Shown piece by piece: positions 33,919-43,583 of a stretch of DNA of 64,000 bases. The stretch spans positions 1 through 64,000 of the IMG/VR virus record IMGVR_UViG_3300037249_001000; one strand, 5' to 3'. Each line of letters opens with the position of its first letter. The stretch's first letter is position 1. The translations under genes were made by a program, and so were the position numbers. The notes beneath the pieces were generated by a model that saw only the letters and a program-made list of their open reading frames with translations, was not told the DNA's origin and made no database searches. The DNA comes from a virus (Duplodnaviria; Caudoviricetes).

Positions 33919-35679
33919 ATGGCAACTAAAGTTATAGACGTATCCGTTCATCAGGGTACAATTAATTGGGATTTAGTTAAAAGTCAGATAGATGGTGCTA
34001 TTTTGAGATGTGGTTATGGAGATAACTATACATCACAGGATGATGCACAATTTGCTAGAAACTTATCTGAATGTGAAAGACTTGGAATCCCTAGAGGTGT
34101 ATATCTTTATTCTTATGCTACATCTGATGCTCATGCACAATCGGAGTTAGAGCATATCCTTAGATTGATTAAAGGTCATACATTCCAACTTCCTATCTAT
34201 CTCGATTGTGAAGAAGCTGGAACAGAAAGTTATGCAGCTAGAGCTTGTAACATTATTTGTGAAGGTATTAAAGCTGCTGGATATACACCAGGTGTTTATT
34301 CCAGTACTAGTTGGTGGAATACATATCTTACATCTGTAACAAAATATAGACGATGGATTGCTCATTGGGCTTCCGCATGTGGATATACTGGTACATATGA
34401 TATTTGGCAATATGGAACTTCATATATCAATGGAATCAATGGACCTGTTGATTCGAACTATTGTTATATAGATTTTAAAGATATGATTAAATCATCAGGT
34501 TCTACTGCAACATCAAATACATCTACAAAGACCAATAGTACAACAACAAAGGAAACATCTACATCTACACTGAAGATTGTACAGAATTATCTAGTTAATA
34601 ATCCATGTTATCAAATTGGTGCTAAAATTGCTGTACAAGGTCTTATGCTTCATAGTGTAGGTTGTGCTCAACCTAGTGGTCCTACATGGTGTAGAATCTA
34701 TGCTACAAATCCTAATGCATGTGTTCATGCATTTATTGATGCCAATGATGGTATTGTATATCAAACATTACCATGGAATCATAGAGGTTGGCATGGTGGC
34801 GGAAGTTCCAATGATACGCATATTGGTGTTGAGATGTGTGAGTCCTCATATATTACATATACAACAGGTGCATCATTTACAGTTAATGATAAAACAAAAG
34901 CTGTTGTAGATGCTAGAAGAGCGTATAATTCTGCTGTTGAATTATTTGCATCTCTCTGTAAGCAATATAATCTTAATCCTCTTGCTTCTGGTGTAATCGT
35001 GAGTCATTCAGAAGGTTATAGACGAGGTATTGCTTCTAATCATGCTGACCCTGAACACTATTGGACTCAACTTGGTTTGAGTTACACAATGGATGGATTC
35101 AGAAAAGATGTACAATCTAAACTTAATGGTGGTAGTGTTTCGACACCTACAACTACAACTGAATCCACTAAAACGACTACTTCTGCACAAAATACTTCTT
35201 TCCCAAAAACACCATTTACTGTAAAAGTTATTATTTCTGACCTTAATATGAGAAAATCCGCATCTATGAATGGTGCTGTTATGGGTCAGACTGGTAAAGG
35301 AACATTTACAATTACACAAGTATCTGGTGAATGGGGTAAATTAAAATCTAATGGTTACTGGATTTATCTTGGTTCATCTGAATATTGTACCATTGGTAAA
35401 ACTGTAACAACAAGTACAACAAAAACTACTACAACTACTACATCGAAAACGAAGGAAACAACTAATAAGACCACTACCTCTAAAACAACTTCGAAACCAT
35501 ATAAAGTTAAAGTAACTGCTGATGTTCTTAACATTAGAAAAGGTGCTGGTACGAATTATGCTGTAGTAGGTACTATTAAAGATAAAGGTATCTATACTAT
35601 TGTGGAAATAAAAGGAACATGGGGTAAGTTAAAATCTGGTGCTGGATGGATTAGTTTGAACTATACTAAAAAAGTTTAA
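33919..35679 (+). CDS. Endolysin: GH25 muramidase + Amidase_2 + two SH3b-like cell-wall-binding domains
   Basis: IDVSVHQG..YLDCE..WQY..VDSN (GH25); MLHS..HAF..WHGG..GVE..SHSE..HADP (amidase); LN(M/I)RK..WGKLKS twice; Thr-rich linkers. Confidence 0.92.
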   Translation: MATKVIDVSVHQGTINWDLVKSQIDGAILRCGYGDNYTSQDDAQFARNLSECERLGIPRGVYLYSYATSDAHAQSELEHILRLIKGHTFQLPIYLDCEEAGTESYAARACNIICEGIKAAGYTPGVYSSTSWWNTYLTSVTKYRRWIAHWASACGYTGTYDIWQYGTSYINGINGPVDSNYCYIDFKDMIKSSGSTATSNTSTKTNSTTTKETSTSTLKIVQNYLVNNPCYQIGAKIAVQGLMLHSVGCAQPSGPTWCRIYATNPNACVHAFIDANDGIVYQTLPWNHRGWHGGGSSNDTHIGVEMCESSYITYTTGASFTVNDKTKAVVDARRAYNSAVELFASLCKQYNLNPLASGVIVSHSEGYRRGIASNHADPEHYWTQLGLSYTMDGFRKDVQSKLNGGSVSTPTTTTESTKTTTSAQNTSFPKTPFTVKVIISDLNMRKSASMNGAVMGQTGKGTFTITQVSGEWGKLKSNGYWIYLGSSEYCTIGKTVTTSTTKTTTTTTSKTKETTNKTTTSKTTSKPYKVKVTADVLNIRKGAGTNYAVVGTIKDKGIYTIVEIKGTWGKLKSGAGWISLNYTKKV

Positions 35680-36314: not shown

Positions 36315-36318
36315 ATAA

Positions 36319-36330
36319 AACATAGATTTA
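36319..36330 (+). promoter_or_regulatory. Late promoter AACA-N6-TA
   Basis: AACA TAGATT TA. Confidence 0.75.
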
Positions 36331-36363
36331 ATACTATTCTAATAGAGAGGACGGTGTTAAAAA

Positions 36364-37572
36364 ATGGGAATGTTTATAAATGAGCAACGAATGATAGAAG
36401 ATAATCTATTTAAATATGAAGAACGATTAAAATCACCAGTATCTCGTTTTATTGAACAAACACCAACATTTGTTACATATTATCATTTGAATAATGATAA
36501 TACAACTGTAGATGATGGTTTTAAAGATATTAGTTCATTAATTGGTTTTAGGTCTCCTTTGAGGTTTAATAAAATAGAATCTTTCCCATTATATGGAATA
36601 GAACAGATTGTGCTTAGTCTTCAAGAAATGGATCAAGGACTTGATACATCGTATGAGTCGGAAGCTATTATAGTACCAGGTTCAATTAAACCATTACCAA
36701 ATGATTTTTTCATTATTCCGTTTTTAAAAGATCCATATCTTTTTAGAGTTACAGAAATTAATTATGATACAATAATGCCTGATAACTATTATAAGATTGG
36801 ATTTAAACTTGAATATCTTGAAGATGAAAAAGTTGAAAATATAGAAAACCAAGTAAAAGAAAAATATACTTGTATTCTTCAAAATATTGGAACAGAAAAT
36901 AATTGTATTATTGAATTAGAATCAAAAGATGTGTTGGATAAAATAGATGCAATGTATGATGATATGGCATCTACATATAAAGCATTATTTTATAATGATA
37001 GACATAATTGTTTCTTAGGTGAAATTGGTCCCGGAATGTATTTGTATGATCCGTTTCAAACACAATTTATTAATGAACACCATATATTTAATAAAAAGAA
37101 TGATTTAAGTTGTTTGATGTTAACAGATCAATTTACTGATTCTAAAAGAAGAATTAAGTATGAAAAATCTATATATAGATTTGTTGAAAGACGAAATCCA
37201 AATTTAGTTAATAATTTTGCATATGATACTTATTTAGGTATGGATAATCATGAAACAACTTTTCATAGGTGGATGGAAAAAAATATTTATATATTAGATA
37301 TTCCATCAGAATTATCAGATAATGCAACAAACATATTTTCAAATGAATTTGTTTTAGCTATAAAGAGTAATGGATTTGTTAATAGTAAATATGCAGAATT
37401 TATAAAAAAATATTGTCGTGGAAAAGAAGAAATGACTATTCATGATATTCCATTAGATTTAAATGATGAATTATTATATTTAGATGGAAATATGGAAGTA
37501 TTCTTTTTTACTCCAATCATTATGTATATGATACAAGATATCGTAAATTCTTTTTTAAAAATAAAAAAATAA
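36364..37572 (+). CDS. Putative virion structural protein
   Basis: Late promoter; FVTYY..SPLRFNKI..FPLYG..IKPLPNDFF recalled as a conserved jumbo-phage structural protein pattern. Confidence 0.45.
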   Translation: MGMFINEQRMIEDNLFKYEERLKSPVSRFIEQTPTFVTYYHLNNDNTTVDDGFKDISSLIGFRSPLRFNKIESFPLYGIEQIVLSLQEMDQGLDTSYESEAIIVPGSIKPLPNDFFIIPFLKDPYLFRVTEINYDTIMPDNYYKIGFKLEYLEDEKVENIENQVKEKYTCILQNIGTENNCIIELESKDVLDKIDAMYDDMASTYKALFYNDRHNCFLGEIGPGMYLYDPFQTQFINEHHIFNKKNDLSCLMLTDQFTDSKRRIKYEKSIYRFVERRNPNLVNNFAYDTYLGMDNHETTFHRWMEKNIYILDIPSELSDNATNIFSNEFVLAIKSNGFVNSKYAEFIKKYCRGKEEMTIHDIPLDLNDELLYLDGNMEVFFFTPIIMYMIQDIVNSFLKIKK

Positions 37573-37635
37573 AGGAATATGAGAAAGCTTATGTAAAACC
37601 GCTTTGAAGATTCTATCTCATATTCCTTTTATTTT

Positions 37636-37884
37636 TTATACAGCATAAACTTCATAGAAAATGCTAGATGCATTTTCCATGTTTATACTGTACTTTTTCC
37701 TCATTGAATTGAGGAAGAGCTCTTCTGCCTTTGTAAAGCAGAGAGAATGATTAATGAGAGAAGTAAAATACTTTCTCTCCCCGTCAGTCATTGCATTCAT
37801 CAAATGATTGCGAATAATATACAATCTGATGATATTGCATCTTGTGTGATTAACGGATTTTTTGATTGTAGAAGTAGCTTTCAT
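37636..37884 (-). CDS. Small early protein
   Basis: 82 aa, RBS aaaggag, own extended promoter. Confidence 0.75.
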   Translation of the reverse strand: MKATSTIKKSVNHTRCNIIRLYIIRNHLMNAMTDGERKYFTSLINHSLCFTKAEELFLNSMRKKYSINMENASSIFYEVYAV

Positions 37885-37938
37885 AGCGTACTCCTTTCTC
37901 TGTTTTTAAGTCTTTAACCAGCTGACTTATTTTATTAT

Positions 37939-37978
37939 ACACAAAAATAATATATCAATATATATATTAAAAATACGG
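37939..37978 (-). promoter_or_regulatory. Extended 40-bp early promoter element
   Basis: acacaaaaataatatatcaatatatatattaaaaatacgg, identical to 38817-38856. Confidence 0.85.
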
Positions 37979-38039
37979 GTAAAAAAAAGTATGACGACTA
38001 TAATTAGTTGTCATACATAACTATTTAGAGAATCAAACA

Positions 38040-38396
38040 TTATTCAATCATAATGTTTGATTCTCTAAATTCTTTTTCTTCTTTCAAAAATTTAACCATC
38101 TCTTTATAATACTTATTCAATATGTTCACCATAAAGTCATAATCTGATTCATTATCAATATATGACTTAGTTTTTGATATTAAATCAAAATCATGAACGT
38201 CTTCCATAAGTATGATATACTTATGTTGTGACGTATTCACATCATCTATCATTTCCTGTATGCGGGCTGAGTCAAGTGGTGAAATACTAAACTTGGTCGT
38301 AGAAGATTTGATCTTCTTGAATACAACAAACGATAAACCCATGACCGATGCTGCTGCTGAAGCAATTGCTAAATTCTTTTTTAACATAATGAACAT
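38040..38396 (-). CDS. Small early protein with N-terminal membrane anchor
   Basis: KKNLAIASAAASVMGLSFVVFKK. Confidence 0.7.
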   Translation of the reverse strand: MFIMLKKNLAIASAAASVMGLSFVVFKKIKSSTTKFSISPLDSARIQEMIDDVNTSQHKYIILMEDVHDFDLISKTKSYIDNESDYDFMVNILNKYYKEMVKFLKEEKEFRESNIMIE

Positions 38397-38496
38397 CCTT
38401 TCTTTTTTAACAATAGATAAAATAATTCAATAATATGTAATATACTCATACGCTTACATAAAAATTATATATAACTATTTTATTAATTAAAAAATG

Positions 38497-38527
38497 AATA
38501 GAAGCTGAGAAGAATAAAATCTCATCA
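38497..38527 (-). repeat. Duplicate of the 3' end of gene 38901..40655
   Basis: 29/31 nt identical to 38904-38934. Confidence 0.85.
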
Positions 38528-38582
38528 AAATAAAAAAAAATAAATAAGCCGTGAGAGTTTTAGTTTCTCTCACGGCTATTTA

Positions 38583-38777
38583 TTAAGCCTCTTCATTATT
38601 ATTTTTCTCGATTTTTTTTTCTCTTACGGCAATTAATATATCTACCGTAAGAATTGTTGCAATACCAGCAACACCCGTAATAATCAAAGCCTTTGAGCTT
38701 CCCTTAATACCTCTTACAACTAATGATGCGGATAATGCTGTAGTAGCTGCATCTCTTACTAATTCGCTTTTCGTCAT
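38583..38777 (-). CDS. Small early membrane peptide (64 aa; start moved to MTKSEL)
   Basis: RBS aaaggtgg; hydrophobic ALIITGVAGIATILTVDILIAV; own terminator at 38547-38577. Confidence 0.75.
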   Translation of the reverse strand: MTKSELVRDAATTALSASLVVRGIKGSSKALIITGVAGIATILTVDILIAVREKKIEKNNNEEA

Positions 38778-38816
38778 ATATAATACCACCTTTCTTTTAT
38801 TAATATATATATTATG

Positions 38817-38856
38817 ACACAAAAATAATATATCAATATATATATTAAAAATACGG
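38817..38856 (-). promoter_or_regulatory. Extended 40-bp early promoter element
   Basis: Identical to 37939-37978. Confidence 0.85.
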
Positions 38857-38900
38857 ATAAAAAAATGAATAGGTTAGATATTCTAACCTATTCATGTAAA

Positions 38901-40655
38901 TTAAATAGAAGCTAAGAAGAATAAAATTTCATCACTAATTTTATCATCACTATATACAATTTCTTTATCCAATAATTCAGGATTATGAAATTCTACATAT
39001 GTGTATTTTGTGTTAATTAATGATGATATTATCTTCATATCATAATTTGGTTTAATTACATTAAGATATTTATGATTATCTTCTTGTAATTTCTGGAACG
39101 TATATGATTCCTGAACTTTCTCAGTAAATTTGATATTTCGTATTACTCTTGTATTAATATGGTCAACACTATTGCCGCTTATAATATAAGGTAATGCCAT
39201 TGACCTAAGTTCGTCATCTTCTTCATCACTATAGCCTAATTCGTTAATAAGCTTTTTCTTTAAGATAAGCATTAATACTATATAATCTCTTCGTCTTAAA
39301 AGATTTAAATCACGATATGAACCAAAATACTTTGCAAAATAAGATAATACTAATTGAATCTGAATATCATCTGGATGATGATTCTTAATATAAAATTCAA
39401 TCTCTTCATCACTAATTACAGTATTATATCTTTTACAAAGATAATCTAATGTAATCGGAATATTAATATCTGCCATTATAGTGATACCTTCGTCAATTTT
39501 TGATAAGTTCATCATCATTTTATCTCCACCAGACAATCCATCTCCATTTTTTGCATTAGTTATTTCAGCAAGATTTTTCTCATATTGTTCTTTCAAGAAA
39601 TAAGTAAGTTGATATTTGATAATGGTTTTGTTAAAACCAATTATGTTATTATTGAATTTATACTTAATAACATTTTCACTTATCAATACACGTCTTACGA
39701 AATCTTGAATTTTTGAATATAAATCTATACCGAAAATTTCTTGTTGTTCAAATATCGGTGAATTATTGCTATATGACTCATTAACCTTTGTTTTTACATA
39801 AACATACAACTTATTATATAGATTATACTCTGCAATATAATTAGTACTACCTACATAAATATTACCATCTTCATATACCAATTTATTTATTACATCATTT
39901 GAAATACTGCACATTACTAATCTTTTATTATGAAAATCATATTTATCATAATATTCAGTTGCTGTATTATAAACGTAAAAATAATTACCATCATTTTCAA
40001 TATAAGCTTCATCTGTATGTTTTTCTACAAGACCAAATATATCAAATAAAGGTTTATAAAATCTATAAATATTATCCGAATCCTTTTCTAATTTAATAGA
40101 ATTGATTGCGTGATAATGTAACATACATGGAGCCATTAATTTCATTGCGAAAGATATTCTCAAAAGAATCTTAACATGCTGATTCGTAAACTCTAATGAT
40201 TCTAGATGTTTTCTATCATTCTTTTGATATTTCTTTTTCTTACTATCATTTCCCTCTATATCAAAAAGATAATTGTCATCAACTAACATATTAATCTTAT
40301 TAATAATAGTATCGGTAAATAATATTTCATACAAAAATGAAATGTAAGCTTCCATATTATTTTCTGTAAAACTTCGTTTTTCATCTGTTTCAAATTTTAT
40401 TTTCAAATATGCACTTATTAATTCATTATCTGAATCATAGCAGTTAATGAAATAATTAATATACTTTGTTATTAATTCTAAATTATTTATATACGATAGC
40501 TTCTGAATATAAAATTTATTATAACGCTCCAATTTAGGTTGCTGAAACACTCTGTCAAAATGACAGAGAAAAATTTTATTATCAGGTTCAACAATACATT
40601 GACTAGACTTTGGAGTCCATTTGTCAATTTTTAATAATTTGGATACTTTTCCCAT
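38901..40655 (-). CDS. Promoter-specificity (sigma-like) subunit of the non-virion RNA polymerase, AR9 gp226/phiKZ gp68-like
   Basis: Colinear similarity to AR9 gp226 as I recall it (HFDRVF, NKFYIQKLSY, LEFTNQHVKILLRISFAMKLMAP, NKLY, LSGGDKMMMNLSKIDEG, DEILFFLASI); two genes from the chaperonin as in AR9; early motif at 40715-40722. Confidence 0.75.
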   Translation of the reverse strand: MGKVSKLLKIDKWTPKSSQCIVEPDNKIFLCHFDRVFQQPKLERYNKFYIQKLSYINNLELITKYINYFINCYDSDNELISAYLKIKFETDEKRSFTENNMEAYISFLYEILFTDTIINKINMLVDDNYLFDIEGNDSKKKKYQKNDRKHLESLEFTNQHVKILLRISFAMKLMAPCMLHYHAINSIKLEKDSDNIYRFYKPLFDIFGLVEKHTDEAYIENDGNYFYVYNTATEYYDKYDFHNKRLVMCSISNDVINKLVYEDGNIYVGSTNYIAEYNLYNKLYVYVKTKVNESYSNNSPIFEQQEIFGIDLYSKIQDFVRRVLISENVIKYKFNNNIIGFNKTIIKYQLTYFLKEQYEKNLAEITNAKNGDGLSGGDKMMMNLSKIDEGITIMADINIPITLDYLCKRYNTVISDEEIEFYIKNHHPDDIQIQLVLSYFAKYFGSYRDLNLLRRRDYIVLMLILKKKLINELGYSDEEDDELRSMALPYIISGNSVDHINTRVIRNIKFTEKVQESYTFQKLQEDNHKYLNVIKPNYDMKIISSLINTKYTYVEFHNPELLDKEIVYSDDKISDEILFFLASI

Positions 40656-40737
40656 GACTAAAATACCTCTTTTCCATATTATTAAATAATCTATATTATT
40701 ATTTATCCTATTTTATAATATATAAATAATTCATGTA

Positions 40738-41529
40738 TCATGATTTTTTCGTAGACTTTCTAGCTCCTTTTCTAACAATACTGCGATGAGAACTAGTAGA
40801 TTTTTTGGCTACTATTTTTTCAACTCTATGAGATGACAATGATGACTTAGTAGGATGTTTTCTATGAACATCGTTTTTTCGTTTTTCTTCATGGTCTTTT
40901 AATTCTTTTTCTAATTTTTTTAATGAAGATTTAGAAAGATTCCTTAATTCTGTATTCAATGTTACTGTTTTAAAATCAGTAATTCCTTTAAAAAATACAT
41001 CTGGTTTTAATTTTCTTCCTATACCAATACCAACTTTATTAAGTACTCTAAATCGTCTTTCAGACAAATACCTACATGCATAGTAGATGGATTTATCAAA
41101 AGATAAATCCATCTCCTTTTCAATATTTTTAGGTAATTTATCAAAATACTCGGGATCTAATTTATCATATAAAAATTCAATTAAGTAATCATATTTTTTA
41201 TATAGTACTGCATATTTATAAATAAATCCAGGACTATTTGAAAAAAATTGGATATAATAATCCCGTATATGAGCTGATTTTAATAACTCTGGATTATCAG
41301 TAAAAAATCTAATAACAACATCGTGGTACACATTATCAGATTTCTGACTTTTAGATGGTATTTTTACATGGAAAAAATATGAGTCTTCCACAATAGTATA
41401 TGCAACAAGTTTAATTTTATCTCTTTCTTTTTCATAAAGGACATCTAATTCTCTTGCTTTTGGAATATTACTATTATGCATACCAAATGGATTAAAAAGA
41501 AACTGGTCTAACGTTTGGTATTTACTCAT
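40738..41529 (-). CDS. Conserved hypothetical protein with basic C-terminal tail
   Basis: 263 aa, between the sigma-like gene and the chaperonin. Confidence 0.75.
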   Translation of the reverse strand: MSKYQTLDQFLFNPFGMHNSNIPKARELDVLYEKERDKIKLVAYTIVEDSYFFHVKIPSKSQKSDNVYHDVVIRFFTDNPELLKSAHIRDYYIQFFSNSPGFIYKYAVLYKKYDYLIEFLYDKLDPEYFDKLPKNIEKEMDLSFDKSIYYACRYLSERRFRVLNKVGIGIGRKLKPDVFFKGITDFKTVTLNTELRNLSKSSLKKLEKELKDHEEKRKNDVHRKHPTKSSLSSHRVEKIVAKKSTSSHRSIVRKGARKSTKKS

Positions 41530-41546: not shown

Positions 41547-43532
41547 TTATTCAAAATTATGCTTTTGTGTAATAACCATTTGATTTCCTGAAATAAGAAG
41601 ACCAATCAGGTCAATAGTTGCAATTAATATTTCTTCATCAGTTTTTGATGAATTAATTACAACTGATACAAACTCTCTTGTTGAAACATCAAATACTTTA
41701 CCTGTACGAACAGAATGATCAATTATTATATCATGCATCGAATACGTATTTTCGTCAATTACATCTTCTTTATCTAATTCTAATACAGGTTTATCAAAGA
41801 ATTCATTAATTTCATAAAGATGATGTATCTCTTTATCATCAAATGCATTACTTAAAACAGTTTTATACACATCAGTAAAACCATCATATAATATATTCAA
41901 TAATGTAGAATAAATTGATACTGATCTCTCATCAAGGTCCGGTGATATAATACATTCAACCAATGTATCTTGAATAGCTTTCATCATATCAACATTACAT
42001 CCATTAACAACGCCATTATCAAATGCTGATGAAGCGGCTTTAATAGCATCGTCCACAGCATCTTTTAAAAGCTTTTGAGACAATTCACTATCTCCACCAA
42101 CTTCGATAACACCCATCTTTAACTTCAAAGCGTAATATCTCTGAAATGCCTGATTTACTACAAGATTGAATGTACCAAGTTTCTTATACTTTTCTTCGGT
42201 TTCTTTAAGTATCGATTCAGCATCTTTTAAAGTTGCATTATACATTTTTTCATCATAATAAAAATCTGTAAACAATGATTTTTTCAAACCAATAGAACCA
42301 TTTCCAACATAACCTAATCTAATAGCATTTGGTGAAAGAGGTAATCTTTCAATATCATCAGTTTTTTTATCATTAGCAAATCTTACGGGATTTGAATCTT
42401 TGATACCTATACAAATTAAATTAGGAATATCTGTACGATTATCAATATTAAATATATTGGTTATTGGTTCATGATTTTCAATTTCTTCATAAATAGAAGA
42501 AAGTAGAGTTCTATCAATAATCAATGTATTACACAACATTGCAAAGTCTGAAGCTAACTTTCTTGTATGTTCCGACAGTGCTTTATACGTACAAAGTACT
42601 AGATTAATTTCTTTTGTAGATTTATATTCTGCAAGTAAATCACGTCTAATTGTTTGACCTAATGCTGTTTCATCATAAGATGAAGCACAAACAATAAGTT
42701 TTCTTCCTCTCATTCTTGATTGTTCATTGAGAGGTTTGAGAATTTTTTCATATATTTCTTTTGTAATTTTTACAGAGAAGAATATAATATCTGCATTACT
42801 AACATTCATTGTGTTATCATCTGAATTAATATACAATTTATCATTTAACACAAGATCAAATTGATAACCTGAAATAATCCTTTTCTTAGTAATACCATCA
42901 GGTGCAAGTTCACAAGTAATTCCCGGAAACTGCAGTTCTTTATACATATCAGCAATGTATGATGAAATAAGTTGGTCACCGTTAGATGAAATATATACGA
43001 TCTTGTATATATTATCATATAATTCTTCAGGATTATTTGAATTAATACTTTTTACATATTTGTGTAAATTATTAATAATTCTATTTTTAATATTATTATA
43101 AATTTGAATGATATCTCTTGGCATAATAAACTTCTTTTGAAGTTCTTCCTTATGCTTGAGATAATTCTGATAAATGCTATTTGTAGCAATTACAGCAGAT
43201 GTTGTTCCATCACCTACACTATAATTAAGTCTACCACAAATATCAGAAGCCATATTAGCAATAGCTTGGTCTACCAATTGTTCTGAAGCATCCATCGAAA
43301 GATTCTTCATAATAGTAAAGCCATCTTTTGTTACATGCGAATATGGATAATTATATATTAAAGTAGGAGCACCATACGGTCCGAATGATTTAGCCAACGT
43401 ACTCCATAAAAGTTTAAATACTTTTGATACTCTTTCTTCATACATTTCTTTTGAAATAACATTTAACCTAGGTTCTTTCTTAAAAAGAACCTCTTCATCA
43501 TTTTTCATGCGTTCATTTAAAATTTCACTCAT
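41547..43532 (-). CDS. groEL: Phage chaperonin (GroEL/Cpn60-like)
   Basis: SFGPYG, VTKDGFT, VGDGTTSA, ISSNGD, VGG..E..KD..DDA..A, GVVNG. Confidence 0.92.
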   Translation of the reverse strand: MSEILNERMKNDEEVLFKKEPRLNVISKEMYEERVSKVFKLLWSTLAKSFGPYGAPTLIYNYPYSHVTKDGFTIMKNLSMDASEQLVDQAIANMASDICGRLNYSVGDGTTSAVIATNSIYQNYLKHKEELQKKFIMPRDIIQIYNNIKNRIINNLHKYVKSINSNNPEELYDNIYKIVYISSNGDQLISSYIADMYKELQFPGITCELAPDGITKKRIISGYQFDLVLNDKLYINSDDNTMNVSNADIIFFSVKITKEIYEKILKPLNEQSRMRGRKLIVCASSYDETALGQTIRRDLLAEYKSTKEINLVLCTYKALSEHTRKLASDFAMLCNTLIIDRTLLSSIYEEIENHEPITNIFNIDNRTDIPNLICIGIKDSNPVRFANDKKTDDIERLPLSPNAIRLGYVGNGSIGLKKSLFTDFYYDEKMYNATLKDAESILKETEEKYKKLGTFNLVVNQAFQRYYALKLKMGVIEVGGDSELSQKLLKDAVDDAIKAASSAFDNGVVNGCNVDMMKAIQDTLVECIISPDLDERSVSIYSTLLNILYDGFTDVYKTVLSNAFDDKEIHHLYEINEFFDKPVLELDKEDVIDENTYSMHDIIIDHSVRTGKVFDVSTREFVSVVINSSKTDEEILIATIDLIGLLISGNQMVITQKHNFE

Positions 43533-43571: not shown

Positions 43572-43583
43572 TAGAAATTTGTT
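43572..43583 (-). promoter_or_regulatory. Late promoter AACA-N6-TA
   Basis: TA gaaatt TGTT on +, upstream of the chaperonin. Confidence 0.7.

Follow-up and report, generated by a model that had tools for sequence, protein, structure and literature searches.

To our knowledge, the non-virion RNA polymerase of the Bacillus phage AR9 is the only multisubunit RNA polymerase known to use the template strand for promoter recognition, and it requires two of the bases to be uracil. Its sigma-like specificity subunit, gp226, contains sigma2-, finger- and sigma4.1-like parts within residues 184-316, and a short helix termed 2.1bis (residues 205-214) builds the pocket for the uracil at promoter position -10 (-10U), where the Cbeta of Val206 lies 3.9 A from C5 of the base and Tyr210 stacks on the guanine at -9 (PMC9209446). 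Val206 is conserved across all close homologs from deoxyuridine phages, and a single engineered change, V206G, removes the uracil requirement by letting the enzyme accept thymine (PMC9209446); at the AR9 promoter, any change at positions -11 to -8 abolishes transcription (PMC5449584). Here, we describe a gp226-like gene (38,901-40,655) in a 64,000-nucleotide stretch of viral DNA from an uncultured jumbo phage of the cattle gut, hereafter the window, which forms the first 64 kb of the 139.5-kb IMG/VR contig IMGVR_UViG_3300037249_001000 (CheckV completeness 58%) and has a G+C content of 25-30%. An initial annotation of the gene had recounted the published observations on V206 and V206G correctly (PMC9209446) and had drawn attention to a proline, Pro300, at the Val206 position. 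The gene is a divergent gp226-family member of a large uncultured gut clade. We consider it probable (about 0.6) that its product serves, like gp226, as the specificity subunit of a multisubunit non-virion RNA polymerase that the phage itself encodes and that acts at AACA-N6-TA late promoters on DNA that most likely contains thymine, with Pro300 being tolerated and not acting as a switch.

An AR9-type subunit and its promoter word

The 584-residue product is a genuine, distant (25% identity) ortholog of AR9 gp226, with profile searches, predicted fold, gene order and the AACA-N6-TA motif in agreement. BLASTP against gp226 yields two collinear segments (residues 33-183 on 21-158, E 6e-9; residues 278-584 on 184-464, E 3e-11), hmmsearch with a profile of 29 relatives recovers PDB chain 7s01_A (gp226) at E 5.4e-30 with profile positions 26-533 on chain positions 9-462, and hhalign of the clade profile with that of the cultured clade reaches probability 100 and E 4e-61 over 468 columns. 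In cultured phages, tblastn matches are confined to AR9/PBS1-type Bacillus phages, at the annotated non-virion RNA polymerase subunit g226, and the N-terminal third of the protein matches PHROG 25005 ('RNA polymerase', E 1e-13). Detection in the PDB required a profile: phmmer with the single sequence did not find gp226 and gave a chance kinase match at E 0.84. A Pfam scan of the protein detected no family at E up to 1, including no Sigma70 region 2 or region 4 domain.

The predicted fold agrees with these alignments. The AlphaFold (AF2) model has a predicted local distance difference test (pLDDT) score of 81.5, and its best Foldseek matches in the PDB are 7s01_A (E 1.6e-15) and 7um0_A, followed by phiKZ gp68 (8que_B, E 2.7e-4); the TM scores are low, 0.4-0.5, owing to the freedom of the domains to shift relative to one another. 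The C-terminal domain matches 7um1_A with a TM score of 0.73 on the target, as well as 8que_B. Residues 1-207 are modelled at pLDDT 84-95 except for the loop 138-152, and the 2.1bis arrangement is reproduced as a helix at 299-307 between long helices at 279-297 and 312-331. In helix 2.1, K282 is invariant, and in the sigma-finger-like segment the clade shows little or no variation at S375, D378, K379, M382, K386, D388, E389 and G390. The initial annotation had proposed a gp226-like sigma subunit and recommended a structural comparison; the comparison, now made with hhalign and Foldseek, found the homology and upholds the proposal.

The gene order points in the same direction, as the GroEL-like, gp227-like and sigma-like genes follow one another as g228, g227 and g226 do in AR9, and 36 of the 130 contig genes have AR9 matches. 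Core polymerase genes lie further along the contig. A beta-N gene just beyond the window (contig G000, 65817-68035), split by a group I intron, matches PDB 7s00_c at E 4.9e-29 and 4.2e-12, and a beta-C gene (82475-84760) matches AR9 g089 at E 8e-91; this check covered beta-N and beta-C, the beta' pieces not having been looked for.

The promoter word of AR9 late genes, AACA-N6-T(A/G), is likewise retained. In the -90 to -10 windows of this genome, AACA-N6-TA occurs 28 times in the sense and 9 times in the antisense orientation, which makes it the most orientation-biased of the 256 four-letter words followed by N6-TA, and its sites cluster 30-55 nucleotides ahead of start codons. It is also the top word in two complete relatives, G001 (47 versus 10) and G003 (35 versus 11). 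The initial annotation had described the first A as variable (GACA, TACA, CACA) and the second as invariant, a pattern that did not survive comparison with controls: sense and antisense counts here are 12 versus 8 for TACA, 2 versus 2 for GACA and 3 versus 2 for CACA, and the flanks of these sites could not be separated from those of antisense controls by scoring. GACA is enriched only in the two relatives (13 versus 3 and 21 versus 3). The clade may thus tolerate a purine at -11, though this genome gives no sign of it.

A further feature of the protein is an insert of about 69 amino acids at residues 208-277, where BLASTP, the alignments and hhalign leave about 3-4 residues in AR9; the roughly 70-residue insertion of the initial annotation, which has no AR9 counterpart, is therefore real. 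It is placed directly ahead of gp226 residue 184, the start of the sigma2-like domain, and in the full-length model it is predicted to form strands at 209-220, 225-230, 235-240, 246-251 and 266-276 and a helix at 253-261, with pLDDT 82-87. The site is hypervariable, since an insert of more than 60 amino acids is found there in 104 of the 122 nearest homologs, the sequences being unrelated and the lengths very different. The window lineage has an added N-terminal hairpin and lacks the C-terminal hairpin of other lineages, and a FastTree phylogeny groups the window protein with three insert-carrying IMG/VR sequences (support 96). Judging from the model, the insert appears to be a lineage-specific, fast-evolving, beta-rich module between the unique N-terminal part and helix 2.1, most likely a surface or regulatory module. 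By its position it may be regarded as a topological counterpart, not a homolog, of the sigma-70 non-conserved region between regions 1.2 and 2.1. The internal echo noted earlier (YIENDGNYFYV / VYEDGNIYV) is present in the letters; it is not conserved. A relative with 95% identity already shows it eroded, and its position coincides with two predicted beta-turns; it probably reflects turn chemistry, with nothing supporting a duplication.

The 2.1bis pocket and the DNA base

BLASTP, MAFFT, hmmsearch and hhalign give one register across the 2.1bis helix, in which N298, S299, P300, I301, F302, E303 and Q304 face AR9 D204, V205, V206, I207, W208, T209 and Y210, and the earlier placement of a proline at the V206 position is thus secure. 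The column itself is far from conserved. Among 121 close homologs aligned with MAFFT it holds P in 70, L in 21, I in 10, T in 8, V in 3 and S in 3, whereas N298, I301, F302, Q304, E306, I307, G309 and D311 are nearly fixed. Near-complete relatives have I, M, V, K, A or R there, and about 90 representatives of the wider family have almost any residue. Five relatives (G003-G007) carry Val at this column together with dUTPase (5/5) and, in four cases, ThyA. In the cultured uracil-DNA clade, by contrast, D204, V206, I207 and W208 are invariant, and the Gln304 column, which is Q in 118 of the 121 close homologs, is occupied by Y or F. The uracil-subgroup signature (Val206 with D204, W208 and an aromatic residue at 210) is thus replaced here by Pro300, N298, F302 and Q304. 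In the tree, the window clade (30 rows, support 100, signature N-x-[IM]-[FY]-Q) stands apart from the clade of cultured uracil phages, both being strongly supported. The non-template-strand aromatic residue of AR9, Y246, is retained as F341 within a conserved IIGFNKTIIK block. A link between the Val/Tyr signature and gene content was also sought outside cultured phages, and an IMG/VR search that used aligned AR9-like uncultured sequences yielded a single contig, of 11 kb.

Since the column varies freely in the clade and relatives with Val have ThyA and dUTPase, Pro300 appears to be lineage variation at an unconstrained site rather than a special adaptation or a switch of its own, and the initial view of it as an informative adaptive change can hardly be maintained. 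The simplest reading is that selection on the pocket wall is relaxed wherever the C5 methyl group need not be excluded.

Gene content bears on the nature of that base. The contig of the window encodes neither ThyA nor ThyX; it does encode a dUTPase of 194 amino acids with all five trimeric dUTPase motifs, which scores above the Pfam cut-off and below that of NCBIfam. The nearest complete relative, G001, has a full-length ortholog of this dUTPase and a ThyA above the TIGR03284 cut-off that adjoins a gene for dihydrofolate reductase (DHFR). Among 14 IMG/VR relatives of 96-100% completeness, ThyA is found in 10, ThyX in 1 and dUTPase in 12, as compared with ThyA in none and dUTPase in none of the five cultured phages AR9, S6, phiR1-37, BpSp and LPJP1 (ThyX was searched only in AR9, which has none). 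Uracil DNA is on record for the first four (PMC7598289), and the evidence for LPJP1 is indirect (PMC8460666). On the basis of its own dUTPase and of ThyA or ThyX in most complete relatives, as against none in the five cultured uracil-DNA phages, the phage most likely has thymine DNA. The initial annotation had left open whether this is a uracil-DNA phage or one with a thymine-adapted polymerase; the ThyA and dUTPase part of the gene search it proposed, together with the retained AR9-type promoter, speaks for the thymine alternative and makes uracil DNA unlikely. PBS2-type Ugi, a further candidate marker, matched only in AR9 and BpSp and in none of 15 window-clade genomes, nor in S6, phiR1-37 or LPJP1, so that its absence says little. 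At least 10 studies of bovine and goat gut have recovered the phage, in a minimum of 14 ordinary DNA libraries, whereas native uracil DNA of LPJP1 defeated a standard library kit (PMC8460666); this fits amplifiable non-uracil DNA weakly. Illumina reads and contigs do not distinguish U from T. Thymidylate genes are not uniform in the clade: G009 (L047/L048) has ThyX instead of ThyA, and three complete relatives have neither, one of which, G014, also lacks a dUTPase match.

Several observations weigh against this picture. The groups compared are two clades, so the hypergeometric chances of finding 0/5 (about 0.001 for dUTPase and 0.005 for ThyA or ThyX) represent one phylogenetic contrast and not 19 independent observations. 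ThyA and ThyX were not found on the phage's own 58%-complete contig, three of the 14 complete relatives (G006, G008 and G014) lack both, and two of the 14 lack a dUTPase match. Retention of the part of the AR9 pocket contributed by beta-N is uncertain, as K stands opposite R363, and N or D opposite K375, the latter in a loop beside the intron where a one-residue gap makes the mapping ambiguous; the mode of base reading may therefore differ. In addition, the insert folded by itself (7 sequences) reached a pLDDT of only 48.8, an unusable structure.

These points give room to other explanations. Uracil DNA as in AR9, with the dUTPase in another role and the pocket differences as neutral drift in a uracil-reading enzyme, would agree with the AR9-type promoter consensus and polymerase, with a G+C content of 27% like that of uracil-DNA phages, and with the absence of ThyA and ThyX from the incomplete contig. 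It is nevertheless very unlikely in view of the intact dUTPase, of ThyA (with DHFR in G001) or ThyX in 11 of 14 complete relatives, and of the replacement here of Val and Tyr, which vary little or not at all in the uracil clade; the lack of a Ugi homolog in the window-clade genomes adds weak evidence. A ThyA-family enzyme might also produce a third kind of base in the DNA, a pyrimidine modified at C5 (for instance a derivative of 5-hydroxymethyluracil) in place of plain thymine or uracil. ThyA-family matches cannot always be separated from dUMP hydroxymethylases, dUTPase feeds such pathways too, and a bulky group at C5 could likewise be accommodated at a position where side chains of every kind are tolerated. 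Yet the ThyA of G001 passes the cut-off of a thymidylate-synthase equivalog and adjoins DHFR, which only true thymidylate synthesis needs, one relative has ThyX, and modification genes were neither seen nor sought; such a modification is extremely unlikely.

The remaining alternatives accept thymine DNA and concern how it is read. Val206 to Pro could itself be adaptive, giving the -10 pocket a shape that admits thymine, in the way that V206G admits -10T in AR9 (PMC9209446). The proline aligns with V206 in every alignment, is the commonest residue among the nearest relatives and has no main-chain NH, the group that in AR9 bonds to the -10U base (PMC9209446), so contacts must change. However, relatives with a thymidylate pathway have L, I, M, T, K, R or A in this column, and some have V itself, proline retains the Cbeta that clashes with the thymine methyl in AR9, and the conserved neighbours of Pro300 differ from AR9 as a block; an adaptive role for the proline is thus unlikely. 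Template-strand reading may instead have been given up, with AACA read on the non-template strand or in the duplex, as by bacterial sigma factors or phiKZ gp68. Most of the residues that contact the template strand in AR9 are replaced (V206 variable, Y210 to Q, beta-N K375 to N or D), the non-template-strand aromatic residue persists as F341, and phiKZ gp68 is a detectable structural relative. This loss of template-strand reading is unlikely, however, since the 2.1bis helix, the novelty of the AR9 template-strand site, is kept and strongly conserved, and the promoter word and spacing are unchanged from AR9.

For the gp226-type subunit on thymine DNA, which we favour, the following working can be proposed by extension from AR9. 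Expression of the sigma-like subunit would probably be early and driven, as for AR9 g226, by a promoter of the TATATTAT type; the subunit would bind a split beta/beta' core, whose beta-N and beta-C genes lie on the same contig. The core would then be directed to late promoters with the predicted specificity 5'-AACA-N6-TA-3', read, as assumed from AR9, in the template strand. With DNA most likely containing thymine, the enzyme would have to accept 3'-TTGT-5' instead of 3'-UUGU-5'. The 2.1bis helix is present with a clade-wide signature different from that of AR9 (N298, variable 299 and 300, I301, F302, Q304, E306, I307, G309 and D311), and, as the Val206 column is under no visible constraint, Pro300 may be read as one of many tolerated residues at a wall that no longer excludes the C5 methyl.

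A large natural clade from ruminant and other guts keeps an AR9-type subunit and promoter word, and its dUTPase and thymidylate genes argue for thymine DNA. It provides dozens of naturally occurring variants, including some with Val at the critical site, with which to ask what sets the discrimination between uracil and thymine, whether template-strand reading survives without uracil, and which state is ancestral; the value of the gene described here is as a member of this natural series. A broader proposal, whose chances we put somewhat short of even, is that uracil-only reading in AR9 is a derived speciality of one small clade, and that most gp226-type polymerases (at least 371 clusters at 50% identity in metagenomes) read AACA-N6-TA on thymine DNA through an altered 2.1bis helix with an invariant Gln replacing the stacking Tyr and an unconstrained Val206 site. 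Val by itself would in that case be neither necessary nor sufficient for telling uracil from thymine.

Expression, genomic surroundings and family size

The features of the locus are listed in Table 1. The candidate early promoter upstream of the sigma-like gene is an octamer, TATATTAT, that also lies inside the annotated early promoter upstream of AR9 g226. It is not significantly enriched window-wide (49 found versus 37.5 expected), and its role here is proposed by analogy.

Table 1. Coordinates of the sigma-like gene, its predicted parts and neighbouring features in the window
Feature	Coordinates	Strand	Remarks
Gene for gp226-like, sigma-like specificity subunit of non-virion RNA polymerase	38901..40655	-	584 aa; one unbroken open reading frame (ORF)
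Lineage-specific N-terminal part of the N-terminal domain, residues 1-207	40035..40655	-	Faces AR9 residues about 9-180; BLASTP and profile alignments
Insert of about 69 aa, residues 208-277	39825..40034	-	Predicted beta-rich mini-domain just upstream of sigma helix 2.1
Helix 2.1 of sigma2-like domain, residues 278-298	39762..39824	-	NKLYVYVK motif; AR9 184-204 in all alignments; AF2 helix 279-297
Short 2.1bis helix, residues 299-308	39732..39761	-	SPIFEQQEIF; AR9 205-214, VVIWTYLKNM; letters read directly
Pro300 codon	39756..39758	-	Column of AR9 Val206; same register in BLASTP, MAFFT, hmmsearch and hhalign
Gln304 codon	39744..39746	-	Column of AR9 Tyr210
Sigma-finger-like segment, residues 359-390	39486..39581	-	Motif LSGGDKMMMNLSKIDEG; aligned to AR9 265-294 finger, LSEQERMEINLLRNDQG
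C-terminal domain, residues 391-584	38904..39485	-	AR9 C-terminal domain 295-464; BLASTP, Foldseek
gp227-like gene, syntenic neighbour	40738..41529	-	BLASTP versus AR9 gp227 E 3e-21; PHROG 20045
GroEL-like chaperonin gene, syntenic neighbour (AR9 g228)	41547..43532	-	Pfam Cpn60_TCP1; PHROG 5725
AACA-N6-TA late-promoter-type motif	43572..43583	-	51 nt upstream of GroEL-like gene
AACA-N6-TA late-promoter-type motif	36319..36330	+	45 nt upstream of head-tail-joining-like gene; example of presumed target
TATATTAT octamer, candidate early (virion RNA polymerase) promoter	40715..40722	-	60 nt upstream of sigma-like start codon

Contigs from three bovine-gut metatranscriptome libraries cover the sigma-like gene at 96-98% identity, which is compatible with its expression, such contigs giving neither strand nor start; stretches left uncovered in them are not evidence. 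A contig boundary shared at 36318 was considered as a transcript start and rejected, as it is a rearrangement joint in a related strain. In the three RNA libraries, the contig with the head-tail-joining-like gene (36318-37573) has about ten times the word depth of the contigs with the sigma-like operon, and a DNA library is flat across both. This contrast hints at late-gene expression, although genes cannot be ranked by the depth of contigs.

Downstream of the sigma-like gene, its last 11 codons and stop (38898-38934) recur after 407 bp at 38491-38527 with 89% identity. The two copies flank an ORF for a 79-aa membrane peptide (38583-38822), an arrangement that resembles a cassette insertion with a duplicated target, and around 37570-38580 related strains in public runs have different junctions. 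On the plus strand, 33919-35679 encodes a large endolysin with an amidase domain (PHROG 1794, E 4e-69), preceded by an AACA-N6-TA motif, which may hint at the cell-wall type of the host.

Group I introns recur in the polymerase genes of these phages. Only about a dozen residues separate the beta-N intron from the loop that makes half of the AR9 -10U pocket (gp105 R363-N382). Orthologs of the sigma-like gene in IMG/VR relatives carry introns of Rfam family RF00028 (56-89 bits): five within about 1.6 kb in L031 (1241-2838), three in L030 (4888-6146) and one each in L037 and L038 (3677-4060 in both). The ORF breaks straight after the KLYVYV of helix 2.1 in L031, L033, L037 and L038. No group I intron was found in the window copy of the gene.

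In 2022, roughly 12 members of the gp226 family were cited from GenBank; the family is in fact far larger, with at least 439 clusters at 90% identity near the query and, at 50% identity, 371 representatives (E up to 0.001), and many members lie on contigs of 220-280 kb. A single-protein search for related loci returned no IMG/VR relative, and an alignment query did find relatives.

Comparison with described polymerases

Among more remote systems, the bacterial sigma-70 family (e.g. sigma-E) offers a parallel in position, as sigma-70 likewise carries a lineage-specific insert just ahead of helix 2.1, at a site corresponding to that of the insert described here. The phiKZ gp68 protein, the fifth subunit of the phiKZ non-virion RNA polymerase (PDB 8QUE, 7OGP), shows likeness in fold only, with no sequence similarity to the window protein. 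It acts on thymine-containing DNA, its promoter differs, and it is required for core assembly, a role not known for AR9-type proteins.

Closer are the other gp226 homologs from cultured uracil-DNA phages, namely those of the Staphylococcus S6 group, Yersinia phiR1-37, Listeria LPJP1 and Bacillus BpSp, which belong to the same family and can be aligned over the sigma2-like region. They form the separate, well-supported clade with D204, V206, I207 and W208 invariant and without ThyA and dUTPase, traits that the window clade does not share.

The closest described counterpart is gp226 of AR9/PBS1 itself (PDB 7S01, 7UM0, 7UM1; PMC9209446, PMC5449584), with homology over the full length and a like order of domains: a unique N-terminal part, sigma2-like helices with 2.1bis, a finger of the form LS..[DE][KR]M..NL and a C-terminal domain. 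The GroEL-gp227-gp226 neighbourhood, the TATATTAT word upstream and the AACA-N6-TA late-promoter word are also common to both. The window protein differs in its low identity, in the insert before helix 2.1 and in the pocket, where D204 is replaced by N, V206 by P (in a variable column), W208 by F and Y210 by Q. It differs, too, in genomic context, since the phage encodes a dUTPase and its relatives ThyA with DHFR or ThyX, none of which AR9 has, and dependence on uracil is therefore unlikely for this otherwise AR9-type polymerase.

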